This document shows, piece by piece, positions 3,398 to 55,673 of a stretch of 64,000 nucleotides of DNA. Position 1 is the stretch's first letter. Every line of letters begins with the position of its first letter. The stretch comes from a virus. Taxonomy: Duplodnaviria; Caudoviricetes. The position numbers and the translations under genes were made by a program. The notes under the pieces are model-generated. The model did no database searches and was not told the DNA's origin. It saw only the letters and a list, made by a program, of their open reading frames with translations. The stretch lies in the IMG/VR virus record IMGVR_UViG_2816332137_000001, positions 3,602-67,601 of that record. One strand, written 5' to 3'.

Positions 3398-4108
3398 ATG
3401 ACTAAAGAGCTTATAAATTTCAAAGAATATTTTAATGAACATATTCTAAAAATTGACACAGAAAATGAAATAATTAAATCATTTTTTTGCGCACGAAAAA
3501 ACAATTCTGCCTACTGGTTTAGGGTTATTTTTGCTCCATATCACATAACAATTTATGGAGATATCGGTAATTTAGCTTTTCATGTTTCCGACTATGACTC
3601 ATTAAAATGGTTATTATCTACCGATAAAAAGCATATTCAATATTTGATGAGTAAAGTTCCTTCTGAATTTAAATCAGCAGTGTTTGAGTTTTCGCATGAA
3701 AAAGCATTGTCTTTTCTTGATGAGCAAGAAAATGATTTAAAAAAATCTATACAAGACAAAAAAGAATCAGACGAGGATATGGATTTTTATGATGATAATT
3801 CTTTTTTTGTAAAGGAAAATATAGTCATAAAAGAATGTGAAGACAAAATTAATAAAATACTATCTCTAAAAGATGATTTACCAGATATTAGCGAAGAAGA
3901 ATTTTATCAAAGACTTGTTGTTGATTTAGATGAAAGTGATTTAGAAACTTCTAGTTTTAAAGACTATACAAGCCATTGTTATTTTATTGCTGCCGCTTTA
4001 TTTAAGTTTTGCAAATTATATAAAGAATATAAAGAAATAAATTTAGACCATGATAAAAATATTTATATGAATACTCAAGTAATAGTCAACTCTAATAACA
4101 ATTATTGA
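3398..4108 (+). CDS. Conserved phage hypothetical protein
   Basis: F..H.L...YWF....P..I.I.GD.G pattern typical of a phage early-gene family. Confidence 0.6.
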   Translation: MTKELINFKEYFNEHILKIDTENEIIKSFFCARKNNSAYWFRVIFAPYHITIYGDIGNLAFHVSDYDSLKWLLSTDKKHIQYLMSKVPSEFKSAVFEFSHEKALSFLDEQENDLKKSIQDKKESDEDMDFYDDNSFFVKENIVIKECEDKINKILSLKDDLPDISEEEFYQRLVVDLDESDLETSSFKDYTSHCYFIAAALFKFCKLYKEYKEINLDHDKNIYMNTQVIVNSNNNY

Positions 4109-44611: not shown

Positions 44612-44896
44612 TTATTTCAGTAAAGATAGAAGATTATTTTTATCTTGTATTATATCTTTCTCTACAATAGAGATATCAACCGCACTTGCTCCTTCAATTC
44701 TATTCTCTTTCGCAAGCATATCCAATGCATAATTCATAAGCCAAATAGCTCGATCCGCCTGAGACTTTTGACCTCTAGGAAAGTTAATTTTTGAGCTATT
44801 AAAAGAAGTTTTAGCATTCTTAATAAAGTTTAAAACATCTGTATTCTCTTCCGAGTCAGGCAACCGCATTTGATAAAACTTTTTTTCGTCACTCAT
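44612..44896 (-). CDS. ParR-like adaptor/DNA-binding partner of the actin-like ATPase
   Basis: ATGA overlap with the upstream actin gene; N-terminal strand-helix (KFYQMRLP). Confidence 0.6.
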   Translation of the reverse strand: MSDEKKFYQMRLPDSEENTDVLNFIKNAKTSFNSSKINFPRGQKSQADRAIWLMNYALDMLAKENRIEGASAVDISIVEKDIIQDKNNLLSLLK

Positions 44897-45891
44897 ACTA
44901 TGGACACCTTTACGCTAGAGTTTCCAATATCTATTGATACATGTTTGTATGATGATTTTAACTTAGACAAACCAGCAACAACGCTAAAAGTTGGATCTAA
45001 GTCTTCAACAAGTTCGGTCATTAGAATAATGTTATAACCGTTACCTTTAGCGATTTCCTTAAGTACAGACATAAATACATGATCTTTTGCTGCACCACCA
45101 CTGACAACAATATTTTTTGCTCTATCTTTATAACGGGCATTTTTATTTAAAAGTTCTCCAATAACTGAACGGATAAATTGTCTGGCAGCAGTTTCTTTTT
45201 CCTTCAAACAATCAATTCTTTTTCCATTCATACCGGATTTTTCTGGCATGTTACCTAATTGCCATGAGTTTATTGCTTCACTTGATGATAAATTTTGTTG
45301 GTCAGAAAAAACCTGAATTGCTCCTGCTAAACCTTCAACGCGTGCGTAAGAATCTGGTAAATTCTTTCCATCAACTCTACTTGCTTGTTGCCAGTCACCG
45401 TGCCCGATGTGCCAATATAAAAAAGTTTTTGCGTCAAGTGGAATGTTGAGCATAGAAGCTAGGAATTCATATGCAATAGTTGGTTCTTCCTGAATAATGA
45501 TTTCGCAATTTTTCCAATTTGAATCAGTGGATTTATCCTTGAACCTAATATTTGCTACTGTTTCCTTAAGCAAAGCAAGTTTATTTCTTGCAAGGGTATT
45601 ATCACCTACCTGATCACGAAACTGATCCATAAACTGAAAAGGGACGCTCATGGCTAATGAAATTACGTGTGTCCCTTCTCCCAAAGCTCTTGCAAGTCCT
45701 GCTTTTAATAATGTTTGGTAATGATCTGACTCTAAAGTTCCACCAAATATTCTTGGGCTATGAGGATTTAAAGTTTGCGCCAGATCGCCTACAACCGTTT
45801 CAATTCCCTTATCATCAATTAAAATTGATTGTTTATTTAGCAACTCTTTTTCTTTGGGGGCAGAACAAATAAAACTTGGTAGAAATTCCAT
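44893..45891 (-). CDS. ParM/StbA-like actin-fold ATPase, circularly permuted
   Basis: Starts at MEFLPS (GAGG RBS); P2-like HIGHGD, adenosine VVSGGAA, connect-2 F.VV.GL; P1 motif SIDIGNSSVK at the C-terminus. Confidence 0.85.
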   Translation of the reverse strand: MEFLPSFICSAPKEKELLNKQSILIDDKGIETVVGDLAQTLNPHSPRIFGGTLESDHYQTLLKAGLARALGEGTHVISLAMSVPFQFMDQFRDQVGDNTLARNKLALLKETVANIRFKDKSTDSNWKNCEIIIQEEPTIAYEFLASMLNIPLDAKTFLYWHIGHGDWQQASRVDGKNLPDSYARVEGLAGAIQVFSDQQNLSSSEAINSWQLGNMPEKSGMNGKRIDCLKEKETAARQFIRSVIGELLNKNARYKDRAKNIVVSGGAAKDHVFMSVLKEIAKGNGYNIILMTELVEDLDPTFSVVAGLSKLKSSYKHVSIDIGNSSVKVSIV

Positions 45892-45944
45892 TAGATAGTT
45901 CCTCATATTTTAAAGCATAAATATTTTAGCTTTAAAGGGTGAAT

Positions 45945-46060
45945 TCTGTTTATTGCATAATTAAAATACATATAAAACATAAAATTCACTTCCTTATCAC
46001 ACAAATAAAATTTATTGCATAAATAACATTTGTTTATTTATGCAAATGCAATGTAACGGA
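45945..46060. repeat. parC-like repeats upstream of the actin operon
   Basis: TTTATTGCATAA twice (about 45949 and 46010) plus an inverted TTATGCAAAT. Confidence 0.4.
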
Positions 46061-46262
46061 AATTTTTAGAGAGGGGAAGTGAACTAATATAAAAATTTTA
46101 ATTTTTATAACATATTAATTTGACAAATTAGAAAACAAGATGAGTATATCTAATGATTTAAATAATTTTTATAATTGGAGGATTTATATTATATGATGAA
46201 ATACTAGAAGAGAAATAAATTTAATCTTTTTAATTAAATAATATTAAAATAGGAAATATATA

Positions 46263-46703
46263 ATGAATATTGATCAGAATTTACTTAAAGAAGTTTTGTT
46301 AAATGCTAAAAATGGATTAATAAAAACAAAATATGACTCAATGGAAATTCCATGTGATGGCTTAGGCGAATACTCATTCATACTATGCCCAAATAAAAAT
46401 ATTGATCCATTTGAAGAGGAAAATAAATATAATGAAGAAATTGAGTATATTAAAACTCTTGCATATCATTTGAAAATATTAATTGATAATAACTATTTAT
46501 ATGGAGAAATTCGAAAAACACATCCTTTTTACATGGTTTCAATAAATGGATTAACTCTTAGCGGACATCAATTTCTGGAAACTTTATCCAATGATAATAT
46601 TTTAAAAAAAGTTATCGAAAAAATTGGAAATATATCTTTAGATACTGTTTCAAAAGTCCCTGCTTTAGCTATCGGAGCTATAATAAATTCTTCACTAAAG
46701 TAA
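46263..46703 (+). CDS. DUF2513-like protein
   Basis: L..L..NNYL.G...LT..GH.FL..L....I.KKV. Confidence 0.65.
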   Translation: MNIDQNLLKEVLLNAKNGLIKTKYDSMEIPCDGLGEYSFILCPNKNIDPFEEENKYNEEIEYIKTLAYHLKILIDNNYLYGEIRKTHPFYMVSINGLTLSGHQFLETLSNDNILKKVIEKIGNISLDTVSKVPALAIGAIINSSLK

Positions 46704-46766
46704 CTTTATAATTATTATTTTGATTTGATAGATTATTTAGGCATTATATATTATAAAAAATACTTA

Positions 46767-48867: not shown

Positions 48868-49293
48868 TCAAAAGGGAATATCATCTGTAATTGGACTAGA
48901 ATTTGAACAAAATTCCGGCTCCTGATTATTATAATATTCATTATCATTTTGATTTGTACTTTGCGAGTTGCTTTCTAGAAATTGAATCGAGTTACTCAAA
49001 ATTTCTGTTGTATAGCGTTTCTGTCCCTGTTGGTCTTGCCATGAACGAGTTTGAAGTTTTCCTTCAATATAAACGAGACGACCTTTTTTTAAGAACTTGT
49101 GTGCTATTTCTGCCAATTTTCCCCAAAGTATAACTCTGTGCCATTCTGTTTTTTCTTGCTTGATACCCTCTTTGATAAAACTTTCACTTGTAGCAATGCT
49201 AAGAGTGCAAACATTTTGTCCGCTTGTTGTGCTTCTAATTTCTGGATCTTGTCCTAATCTACCAACTAAAATAACTTTGTTCACGCTTGACAT
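48868..49293 (-). CDS. ssb: Single-stranded DNA-binding protein
   Basis: [15 protein letters not shown]...TEWHRV...DDIPF tail. Confidence 0.96.
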
Positions 49294-49696: not shown

Positions 49697-50272
49697 TTAA
49701 ACTATTGCTAATACTTCTTCTCGGCCCGCTTTTGTTCCGCAAAGCATATCATCGCCTTTTCTGATTGCCTCTGATAAAGCTTTTTTATTAATTATTTTGA
49801 TTGTTTTTTCTTCTATGAATTCTTTAGGAATTAATGTTTCTTCATTTTCGGAAACGACATTTTTTACTTCATTAAAATCAACAAGCCAATTAATCGCTTC
49901 AACTCCGCCTTTATTTCTAATTTTAAATGATTTAATTGAGCCATGAATTTCTCGAATATTATTTTCACGCATTATATCTAATGTTTTTTTATAAATATTA
50001 TCTTGAGCTTTAATAAGTTTTGTTTGTCTCAGTTTGATATCTTTTATCATTTCATCAAAATGATTTATTTGAACATCTAAAGCATCAATTAAAAAAATTC
50101 TTCTATCAGCAGCGGCCCGTGAATTTATTTCAACAGCATCTAGCGAGGGTATTAAATCGTCCGGAATTTCTCCTGCTGTTATCTCAAGGTATTCCATAAA
50201 TTCAGCTAGTTTTTTTTGAGTTTCAGCGAAAGGAATTTTTACAGGAATAATAGCAGTATCTTTTTTTGCCAT
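49697..50272 (-). CDS. Gp157-like coiled-coil protein
   Basis: Coiled coil, IP.EF.....INKKAL.EA...G C-terminus; divergent from bet. Confidence 0.7.
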   Translation of the reverse strand: MAKKDTAIIPVKIPFAETQKKLAEFMEYLEITAGEIPDDLIPSLDAVEINSRAAADRRIFLIDALDVQINHFDEMIKDIKLRQTKLIKAQDNIYKKTLDIMRENNIREIHGSIKSFKIRNKGGVEAINWLVDFNEVKNVVSENEETLIPKEFIEEKTIKIINKKALSEAIRKGDDMLCGTKAGREEVLAIV

Positions 50273-50471: not shown

Positions 50472-51548
50472 ATGACACTACCAGTTAAAAAAAATGATAT
50501 TCAAAAATCCGCCTCTTCAATCGCAAATTTTTCTCCAGAACAGATAAATGTTCTAAAAAACTCAATAGCCAAAGGCGCAACCGATGAAGAATTAGAGTTG
50601 TTCCTCTATACCTGTAAGAGAACAGGATTAGATCCATTCTCTCGTCAAATTTATTTAATCCAAAGAAAAACAAAAGATGATGATTCAAAAGAGAAAAAAA
50701 GTAATGGAGTTATACAAGTTTCAATTGATGGTTTTAGATCTATTGCTTCGAGAAATCCTGAATACGCAGGACAGACTACAACATTATTTTGTGGAAAAGA
50801 TGGGAAGTGGACAGAAATTTGGACTCAAGAAGAATATCCATTTGCTGCAAAGGTTGGAATTTACAGAAAAGGATATCAAGAAGCAACTTATGCAATAGCA
50901 AAATGGGATTCTTATGTACAATGCTATTGGGTGAAAAATAATCATGGAAAAAACAGCCAAGAGGTTTCTTCTATGTGGAAAAAATTCCCAGAATTAATGC
51001 TAGGAAAATGTGCTGAAGCTTTAGCCTTAAGAAAAGCTTTTCCGAGTGATTTATCTGGGCTTTATACCGCTGATGAAATGGCCCAATCTAATAATGAAGT
51101 TATTGAAGCGCAAGAAGTAAAAGATGAGGCTCAGAAGCCTAAATTACCAAGCACAAAAGAATGGACAGAACAAAATAAAAAAATTACCGAGGTTCAACAA
51201 AAACAAATTGAAGAAGAAGTAAATACTCAGTCAGTCAAAAAAGTTCCTGCACAAGTCGCTCAAGCTCAAAAGGTTCTCGACAGAAAAGAAAAAGCACTTG
51301 AAGCGGAAGTGATTGATAACGAAATTGTTTATAATGGCTCAGAAGATCATAAAAGTAAGTTCAAGGAAATATTCAGATGCTTAAAAATATTTTCTGAGAT
51401 AAAAAATGACATGGAAAAAACAGTAGAGCTAGCTACATATTTTAGCGAGCGGTGCCTTGGTGTTCCGTTGAAACATTTAAAAGAACATCTTATAAATATT
51501 GAAAATGATTACAAAATTAATCATTCCAAAGATATTTCAGCAGCTTAA
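50472..51548 (+). CDS. bet: Phage single-strand annealing protein Bet/RecT family
   Basis: GLDPF.RQIY, SIDGFR.IA, WKK.P..ML.KCAEA.ALRKAFP. Confidence 0.92.
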   Translation: MTLPVKKNDIQKSASSIANFSPEQINVLKNSIAKGATDEELELFLYTCKRTGLDPFSRQIYLIQRKTKDDDSKEKKSNGVIQVSIDGFRSIASRNPEYAGQTTTLFCGKDGKWTEIWTQEEYPFAAKVGIYRKGYQEATYAIAKWDSYVQCYWVKNNHGKNSQEVSSMWKKFPELMLGKCAEALALRKAFPSDLSGLYTADEMAQSNNEVIEAQEVKDEAQKPKLPSTKEWTEQNKKITEVQQKQIEEEVNTQSVKKVPAQVAQAQKVLDRKEKALEAEVIDNEIVYNGSEDHKSKFKEIFRCLKIFSEIKNDMEKTVELATYFSERCLGVPLKHLKEHLINIENDYKINHSKDISAA

Positions 51549-54338: not shown

Positions 54339-55673
54339 ATGACTACTCAAAATTGTTGTGATCTTTCAAAATCCAAAACCAGAAAAACATATAAAAATAA
54401 ACTAATTTTAAAACCAATGCGGGAAGGTTACACTCACAATCACGCAAAAAATGAAGCTTACAATGGTGGTAGATCTTTAAGGGCAATTTGGACAAATCCA
54501 AATATCACTTCAACTCAAAGTTTAGTTTTATTATGTATTTCTTCACATTTGGATTTTAAAAAAGATTTTAAATCTTGGATAAAAATTTCAATCTCTCAAA
54601 TTGCTTCCGAAACTAAATTAGGCGTAAGAACAGTCCATAAAATCATTTCCGAATTAATAAAATTGGAATATTTAAATAAGCAAAGAAATTTTTCCCAAAA
54701 AACTTTTTTACAAGAGGAAAGTAGTTTTTGCTTAACTAATAAGCTTTTTGATGAGCATGTAAATTATTTACAAAAAAGTTTAGTTCCTACCTCGAATCAC
54801 AATGAGCATGTAAAAGAGTACAAATTTCAAAAATCTCTAAAAAGTAGCAATAAAAAAATTTTACAGTCCGCAACTCCTGCAAAGCAAGTCCGCACACCTT
54901 ACACATCTAATATGCACGACATGCAAAGTAAGGTTGTACGAGATGCAGACATTTTCCCCTTAGATCTTTCCTCTTTAAAACTTTCCCCTCAAAATTCTCC
55001 AATGTGTGAAGAAAAAATTTCACACACAATTGAAAATCCTATTGCTTATAAAAGTAACAACTCAGAATTAAAGCAAGTGGGAATTATAATTTGCGAATTA
55101 CTTAAGCAAAAGCAAAAAAGGAAGTTTATCCCAAATATGGAATGCGAAAGCTTAATAGCTAAAGCTAAGCTTCACCTAGATCTTAACAACTGTGATCAAT
55201 TTTTATCTTTCGCTAAAGCTGCCATAGCTAATGAGCATTACAACAATTTAAATAACTCTAAGAATATCGAAAGTATTTTCATTAATGAAGTAAAAAGTTT
55301 TATTGATAACAAAGAATATATTGCTTCTTTTAAAGCTAAAGAGATTACCGAATGCAAAAAAGAATCAATCGAGCAAATAGCAAATCGTTTTAAAGCACCT
55401 GTGGAGCAATTTTTAGGACAGGCCTTAACCAGTGTTCATGCAAAACAAAATGAGCCTTTAAAAGCTAAAGAAACACGTCAATCAAGTTTAACTGATGGCT
55501 TAAGCGATTCTGCTTTAGCTTGGTACAAAAATTTAGATAGAGCAAATAAAATCATTGTTCAAAAAGAAATCAAAAAGCATGGTCCCGCAAAATTTTCATC
55601 TTTAATTCTTCCAAGCATCAAATCTTATAAAAATTTCGTTACAAGCTTTAAATTTGAAGCGAGGGCAGCATGA
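54339..55673 (+). CDS. wHTH replication initiator-like protein
   Basis: T.T..LVLL.I..H...S.SQIA.ETKLG.RTV.K.I.ELI..EYL (HTH_36-like). Confidence 0.7.
   Translation: MTTQNCCDLSKSKTRKTYKNKLILKPMREGYTHNHAKNEAYNGGRSLRAIWTNPNITSTQSLVLLCISSHLDFKKDFKSWIKISISQIASETKLGVRTVHKIISELIKLEYLNKQRNFSQKTFLQEESSFCLTNKLFDEHVNYLQKSLVPTSNHNEHVKEYKFQKSLKSSNKKILQSATPAKQVRTPYTSNMHDMQSKVVRDADIFPLDLSSLKLSPQNSPMCEEKISHTIENPIAYKSNNSELKQVGIIICELLKQKQKRKFIPNMECESLIAKAKLHLDLNNCDQFLSFAKAAIANEHYNNLNNSKNIESIFINEVKSFIDNKEYIASFKAKEITECKKESIEQIANRFKAPVEQFLGQALTSVHAKQNEPLKAKETRQSSLTDGLSDSALAWYKNLDRANKIIVQKEIKKHGPAKFSSLILPSIKSYKNFVTSFKFEARAA

Follow-up and report, generated by a model that had tools for sequence, protein, structure and literature searches.

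A circularly permuted ParM-like protein with a predicted ATPase core was identified in a 64,000-nucleotide stretch of tailed-phage DNA (Caudoviricetes; positions 3,602 to 67,601 of IMG/VR record IMGVR_UViG_2816332137_000001), which is referred to below as the window. In this actin-like protein (ALP) the first beta-hairpin of the actin fold, which carries the phosphate-1 loop, is found at the C-terminus of the chain. The gene lies on the minus strand at 44893..45891 and encodes 332 amino acids followed by a stop codon. Circular permutation, as proposed in an earlier note made from the sequence, is supported by motif conservation, by the core of an AlphaFold2 (AF2) model, by profile comparisons in doubled and re-permuted form and by clusters of the ESM Atlas. 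The protein is probably the ParM-type actin of a ParMRC-like partition cassette carried by a non-integrating, plasmid-like prophage.

The open reading frame (ORF) itself extends over 44893-45906(-), corresponding to 337 amino acids; residue numbers throughout refer to this 337-residue ORF (start 45906) and not to the 332-residue protein. All of the motifs quoted in the earlier note were located in this ORF (MEFLPS, ISLAMSVP, LYWHIGHGDWQ, IVVSGGAA and PTFSVVAGLSKL), which closes with KSSYKHVSIDIGNSSVKVSIV and the stop codon, the Asp of D-I-G-N being encoded at 44929-44931 as had been stated. The start at MEFLPS (ATG 45891, 332 amino acids), also claimed there, is taken to be the real one: it has a ribosome-binding site, AGGAA, in front of it, and the alternative ATG at 45906 is replaced by ATA or ACA in the aligned relatives of 97% and 95% identity. 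The possibilities of a lost N-terminal exon and of a frameshift were rejected, as an in-frame TAA is positioned two codons ahead of the first ATG of the ORF and no minus-strand ORF of at least 40 amino acids was found in 45907-46766, a region which includes the AT-rich 356 bp upstream of the gene.

The C-terminus of the protein is VSIDIGNSSVKVSIV, and there is no N-terminal phosphate-1 hairpin of the kind present in ParM-like actins. The C-terminal beta-hairpin (residues 321-337; 44896..44946, minus strand) contains the phosphate-1 motif D326-I-G328-N329-S-S-V-K333 (44908..44931, minus strand). The remaining elements of the predicted nucleotide site, all on the same strand, are an altered phosphate-2 loop, G168-H-G170-D171-W-Q173 (45388..45405), situated between model strands E162-167 and E171-178; the adenosine motif S269-G270-G271-A272 (45091..45102), which aligns to the canonical LTGGGA; and Glu147 (45466..45468), which presumably corresponds in position to ParM's catalytic Glu.

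The phosphate-1 hairpin at the C-terminus

A word-indexed search returned 7 relatives, one of them encoded on a Pigmentibacter ruber record of 66 kb that bears the label plasmid, and a profile search of 1.84 billion representatives (E <= 0.001) gave 36 clusters, nearly all of 330-360 amino acids and matching from end to end. Relatives were drawn from NCBI, ENA, JGI, Logan, PLSDB and IMG/VR, i.e. from independent assemblies. Conservation was assessed in an alignment of 26 full-length members (20-89% identity), in which only 15 columns are invariant; three of these are D326, G328 and K333 of the phosphate-1 motif (N329 is conserved in at least 90%), and the others include E147, G168/G170/D171/Q173, G270/G271 (with S269 at 90% or more) and G312. 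The pattern D-x-G-[N/H]-x-x-x-K was observed in the last 45 residues of all family proteins that reach the C-terminus (34/34), down to 20% identity, and a phosphate-1 motif was present within the first 40 residues in none of 42 family members. Among canonical ALPs (n = 31, retrieved with the ordinary ParM-like protein of the same genome) the motif was N-terminal in 26 and C-terminal in none. This pattern is beyond chance, and a chance C-terminal motif was rejected on the same counts. The homologues sharing the permutation that the earlier note had asked for were thus found, and misassembly, which it had named as the outcome that would overturn its proposal, was rejected on account of the family-wide C-terminal motif in independent assemblies.

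The alteration of phosphate-2 pointed out in the earlier note was also borne out by the family. H166, ahead of the loop, occupies the position of the first phosphate-2 Asp in canonical ALPs; this position is His/Gln or variable across the family, and the invariant D171 and Q173 follow two to four residues later. The nucleotide-site set consists of invariant phosphate-1 D/G/K, E147 and G270-G271, with the first phosphate-2 Asp replaced by His/Gln.

The family alignment was compared with an alignment of 23 canonical ALPs using hhalign. In native order, query columns 7-276 matched template columns 21-290 (score 55, E 8e-7). When the hairpin columns were moved to the front, as the earlier note had advised, the alignment extended to query 5-292 and template 5-290 (score 76, E 7.5e-10), and when the family alignment was doubled (junction at 343), query columns 325-612 matched template 5-290 (score 76, E 5.9e-9). 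In the doubled alignment lalDiGNs-lK was placed over vSIDSGSSylK and, past the junction, the conserved P-S-x-I (PSFI in this protein) over epslV and eylVG over wyvaG. With a single canonical sequence against the family alignment, the hairpin alone was matched (columns 325-339 with residues 3-17). Single family sequences scored 0-13 bits against the hidden Markov model of the canonical ALPs, which is not significant; on doubling, the best domain crossed the junction in 15 of 26. The canonical order of motifs (phosphate-1, connect-1, phosphate-2, adenosine, connect-2) is broken here in that phosphate-1 comes last, and re-permuting the order restores the full alignment. Alignment of a doubled query across its junction to the unpermuted family, which identifies a circular permutant, was obtained both for this family and for a second permuted family described below.

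ParM/Alp-type actin-like proteins (Pfam ALP_N, PF17989, with MreB-like_C, PF21522; PHROG 691) served as the reference class. PHROG 691 ('partition protein') was matched with an E-value of 8e-10, over profile positions 40-322 of 329 only, and Pfam ALP_N with 17.1 bits (cut-off 26.3) from profile position 33 onwards, E<0.01 being reached in only 10/26 members. The ALP had no match in NCBIfam or in a phage collection, and a sequence search of the PDB with the protein and with the family profile matched no chain.

An AF2 model calculated from the 26 sequences had a predicted local distance difference test score (pLDDT) of 93.4 and a predicted template modelling score of 0.88, with the final strands (E321-327 and E331-336) at pLDDT 93-95; an earlier model from 8 sequences (pLDDT 67.8) had wrong helices in subdomain IIA and was discarded. 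The model has the actin/ASKHA fold with subdomains IA, IB, IIA and IIB. The comparison with known structures suggested in the earlier note was performed with Foldseek and VIA-align, and ParM-type actins ranked first, before MreB and actin: Dh-cParM1 (8x1i) scored 22.0 (root mean square deviation 2.8, 285 aligned), pCBH ParM (6izr) 21.8, Ta0583 20.5, CorM 20.2, Alp7A 19.1, MreB about 18 and actin about 17. In 50/50 VIA-align rows the model, from residues 1-4 to residues 317-322, was aligned with chain residues from 18-28 onwards (later where the target has an N-terminal extension), leaving the first two strands of the targets and the last 16 residues of the model unaligned. A sequential aligner is bound to omit these parts in a circular permutant. 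Taken with the match of the doubled profile to the canonical N-terminus, the model suggests that the C-terminal hairpin (321-337) is the counterpart of strands 1-2 in canonical actins. In the ESM Atlas, two Bacteroidota clusters aligned at residues 3-337 (template modelling score 0.80-0.82) and were the only clusters to span the C-terminal hairpin, while canonical clusters aligned over 1-321, those of ParM/StbA, PRTRC-D and phage ParM ending at residue 314-322.

Partner gene, upstream boxes and mobile elements

The stop codon of the ALP gene (TGA, 44893-44895) overlaps the ATG (44894-44896) of a 94-amino acid ORF (44612..44896, minus strand) in the sequence ATGA (44893-44896), in agreement with the earlier note. 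The product of this ORF is a candidate adaptor, ParR-like by position only. A small ORF was found directly downstream of the ALP gene in 14/14 loci examined, overlapping it or separated from it by a few bases and encoding 87-133 amino acids (198 in one locus), and the arrangement is that of type II partition, in which the ALP gene is followed by a small adaptor-type gene in one operon. The small proteins are mutually 15-28% identical and align weakly. Common to them are a strand-like segment at the N-terminus, a helix and a P-x-G...[SA][ED]RA..L[ML] helix with invariant Arg49/Leu53, after which come a low-complexity linker, which varies, and a short tail of hydrophobic or aromatic residues; judged from the sequences, this may be the layout expected of a ParR-type adaptor. 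The ESM Atlas yielded a poor model of the 94-amino acid protein and no usable match to it.

Upstream of the ALP gene, a candidate centromere/operator was located at 45909..46047 (minus strand; repeat families D3/D5, inverted repeats I4/I13), comprising four TTTATGC(A/T)-type boxes, three direct and one inverted. Two of the boxes together make up a perfect inverted repeat with 12-bp arms (46015-46026 and 46034-46045), a palindrome (45909-45936) abuts the ALP start, and 3 of the 9 exact copies of TTGCATAA in the window are contained in a 93-bp stretch of this region. The boxes are kept in the relatives of 97% and 95% identity and partly in that of 89%, the distal sequence not being kept, and at distant loci other repeats are found at the same place upstream. 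The intergenic region holding the boxes is shared with a divergent neighbour (46263-46703, plus strand) encoding 146 amino acids, which belongs to PHROG 585 (unknown function) and whose P. ruber counterpart matches Pfam DUF2513.

The window represents contig C30 (67.6 kb) of a 3.94-Mb Silvanigrellaceae genome with 29% GC. This contig encodes a large terminase, portal, prohead protease, major capsid protein, tail sheath, tape measure, RecT (50472-51548), single-stranded DNA-binding protein (SSB; 48868-49293), a Gam-like protein (49697-50272) and a replication initiator (54339-55673), and the window resembles a contractile-tail phage with replication and recombination genes. C30 was searched for a tyrosine integrase, an rve transposase and a serine recombinase/resolvase, none of which was found. 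The earlier note is corrected in that the element is regarded as a phage-plasmid and not as a plain plasmid; C30 is likely to be a non-integrating phage-plasmid of Silvanigrellaceae. Homologues of 89-97% identity were found on the 66-kb P. ruber 'plasmid' (89%), in a 63-kb IMG/VR viral genome (95%) and in a Silvanigrella metagenome-assembled genome from Lake Mendota.

More widely, the family was present in 10 of 131 genomes of the host phylum, with a patchy distribution and sometimes in several copies. Distant members are found on Aeromonas plasmids of 190-370 kb, adjoining MobH, MobI and TraF, while others adjoin TrfA with iterons, a resolvase, the TraG/TrwB coupling protein, TraI_2 and AcaB. 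On A. hydrophila pMCR5_045096 (123032-124424), a multi-resistance plasmid named for mcr-5, and further large Aeromonas plasmids, the ALP/small-ORF pair adjoins mobI/mobH, both of its genes being annotated as hypothetical. On one metagenomic plasmid contig (L013), TrfA and the permuted ALP gene are separated by a long, partly N-masked array of tandem iterons of the GGGCGTTATCACCCACC type (L013:3440-3860), and the ALP gene is immediately preceded by separate repeats of the AAATTGATT type.

Proposed function and alternative explanations

In this protein the first beta-hairpin of a ParM-type actin, with its phosphate-1 loop D-x-G-N-x-x-x-K, has moved from the N- to the C-terminus. The chain begins at the equivalent of strand 3 and runs through subdomains IA, IB, IIA and IIB and the last IA helix to a linker of approximately 7 residues and the hairpin. 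In the proposed mechanism, the hairpin would insert in cis, i.e. into the IA sheet of its own chain, and complete the nucleotide site. The ALP would bind and hydrolyse ATP or GTP and polymerise, while the 94-amino acid protein would bind the upstream TTTATGC boxes and, together with the ALP, partition copies of the prophage at cell division in the manner of ParMRC of plasmid R1. A partition role is the best reading of the genetic context, i.e. the conserved small ORF, the plasmid and conjugative-element neighbours and the conserved boxes, and the cassette is the likely reason why a tailed phage persists as a plasmid in Silvanigrellaceae.

Several observations weigh against this reading. The parM-parR-type operon of the earlier note is supported by context only, through the coupled small gene (14/14 loci) and the plasmid and integrative and conjugative element neighbours; the 94-amino acid protein matched no ParR, ribbon-helix-helix or other family in Pfam, NCBIfam, PHROG or a PDB profile search. 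There are only four boxes, far below the ten iterons of R1 parC. The usual first phosphate-2 Asp is absent (Ser replaces it in the second permuted family, His/Gln in this one), so that nucleotide handling may differ, or the chemistry may be weak. The evidence for the predicted placement of the hairpin in the nucleotide cleft is indirect. Finally, the ends of C30 do not overlap, and its circular or extrachromosomal state is putative.

It is unlikely that the permuted ALP, although real, is not a partition motor and instead has a lytic or replicative role in the phage, placing or moving phage DNA in the manner of AlpC/AlpA, or forms some other cytoskeletal element. Such a role would fit the location of the gene in a phage genome, with the lysis/accessory region on one side and the genes for SSB, Gam and RecT on the other, and a prophage ALP acting in viral DNA replication has been reported (PMC4446434 and PMC5539076); most family members examined, however, reside on plasmids or conjugative elements that are free of phage genes, such as a TrfA replicon, Aeromonas plasmids of 190-370 kb and loci with type IV secretion system and relaxase neighbours, and C30 needs a maintenance function because it has no integrase.

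A permuted actin fold that does not polymerise, or an inert ASKHA-type protein (a regulator or chaperone-like ATPase) in which the hairpin is structural only, appears improbable. The invariant residues are those of the nucleotide site (phosphate-1 D/G/K, E147, G-x-G-D-x-Q and SGG), even though the loss of the canonical first phosphate-2 Asp and the Pfam and NCBIfam scores below cut-off would suit such a protein. Moreover, MreB and actin rank behind the nearest folds, all of which are ParM-type actins that form filaments; Hsp70 or sugar kinases occur in 0/50 VIA-align rows, and the few Hsp70/DnaK rows in Foldseek rank far below the ParM-type actins. Both the gene pair and its setting on mobile elements agree with type II partition.

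An artefact, in which misassembly, frameshift or a decaying tandem duplicate joined a fragment of a second parM copy to the 3' end of a gene that had lost its 5' part, is barely credible: a recent duplication-truncation intermediate could look alike, duplication followed by truncation being the textbook route to circular permutation, but the arrangement is judged not to be an artefact because it is conserved across the family, intact in all 34 relatives that reach the C-terminus (down to 20% identity, many independent assemblies), and the invariant motif, the in-frame stop with no upstream exon and the confident AF2 model argue the same way.

It is a long shot that the permutation alters the working of the motor itself and is not a neutral rearrangement. 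The short-tethered hairpin would then act as a detachable lid, or would insert into a neighbouring subunit so that the ATP site is completed only on polymerisation, with the lost phosphate-2 Asp and Asp171/Gln173 belonging to an altered cycle and one ancient permuted lineage lying behind both the partition cassettes and the Bacteroidota forms.

A second permuted family and comparison with known systems

The same genome carries a second, distant permuted ALP on a 44-kb plasmid-like contig, C1 (L005:1486-2499, plus strand), in which ALDLGNHTTIGF stands near the C-terminal end. A relaxase-like gene lies upstream of it and a 99-amino acid ORF downstream (L005:2512-2811). Relatives of this second family were found in Silvanigrella aquatica (P0043) and other Bdellovibrionota genomes, some of the copies being chromosomal. 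The two families have the same cut point and a small ORF behind the ALP gene, and differ in sequence, with a pairwise identity of approximately 18-22%; the second family has D-[LFI]-G-N-x-[ST]-T as phosphate-1, in which the Lys is lacking, and S-I-G-[FY]-G-T-[IV]-E as phosphate-2 (SIGFGTIE on C1). When doubled, the second family also crosses its own junction (324-621 against template 3-288). The two permuted families matched each other end to end with a score of 107 (E 2.5e-14), compared with only 76 (this family) and 89 (second family) against the canonical set. At the level of profiles this favours a shared permuted ancestor, although, with one canonical family compared, it does not constitute proof.

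ALPs of the second family ending in LIADFGNSNTV... were also noted at L026 (G074:C1:1152014-1155397) and L020-L022, in genomes of 6-10 Mb from another family of the phylum; one of these genomes is a single contig, and its ALP copy is apparently chromosomal. A large chromosomal contig of the host genome of C30 additionally encodes a ParM-like ALP of ordinary, unpermuted chain order (C3:620572-621534; L004:1501-2463), which starts with MIISIDSGSSNLK; a match to a tyrosine integrase is located approximately 3 kb downstream of it (C3:624277-624855), so that this ALP may be part of an integrated element.

To our knowledge, the phosphate-1 hairpin comes first in all actin-fold filament formers described so far (actin, MreB, FtsA, MamK, ParM, AlfA, Alp7A and crenactin), and AlpC presumably has the normal chain order as well. 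A full-text literature search for a natural circularly permuted actin-like, ASKHA or bacterial actin protein returned none, the only full match being an engineered sensor. The statement in the earlier note that no described example was known to it agrees with this search, but this gene is not alone in its permutation, which is family-wide and is accompanied by a second permuted family in the genome. The database labels of relatives are hypothetical, 'ALP N-terminal domain-containing' and 'ParM/StbA family', and permuted ALPs on plasmids are annotated as hypothetical because profiles that depend on the N-terminal hairpin give them scores under the threshold. That a natural lineage with the hairpin last has been conserved indicates that the fold and the nucleotide site tolerate rewiring in working mobile-element genes, and the lineage offers natural material in which to study the effects of connectivity on nucleotide gating, filament polarity and adaptor docking. 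The present case adds a probable partition-cassette form, found both on true plasmids and on a likely phage-plasmid, together with the occurrence of two permuted families in one genome.

The closest structural comparisons are with Dh-cParM1 of Desulfitobacterium hafniense (8x1i; PMC12270681) and pCBH ParM of Clostridium botulinum (6izr, 6ixw; PMC6599009), both of which align to the model only from their own residue 20-23 onwards; the N-terminal hairpin of each has no sequential counterpart in the model, and model residues 321-337 have none in either of them. AlpC/AlpA of the Corynebacterium glutamicum prophage CGP3 resemble the system described here in combining a prophage ALP with a DNA-binding adaptor, and differ in that CGP3 is integrated and that the role assigned to the pair is phage DNA replication and transport and not plasmid-type maintenance (PMC4446434, PMC5539076). 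With ParM/ParR/parC of plasmid R1 (1mwm, 4a61, 4a62) there are both differences and likenesses. Here the chain is rotated, with the phosphate-1 hairpin at the C-terminus, the first phosphate-2 Asp is replaced, identity to R1 ParM is only approximately 12%, the small partner is without detectable ParR similarity and four boxes are found in place of a ten-iteron array. What is common to the two is the actin fold with its four subdomains (Foldseek E 2e-11) and the succession of upstream repeats, ALP gene and small coupled gene on a mobile element, here a putatively low-copy one.

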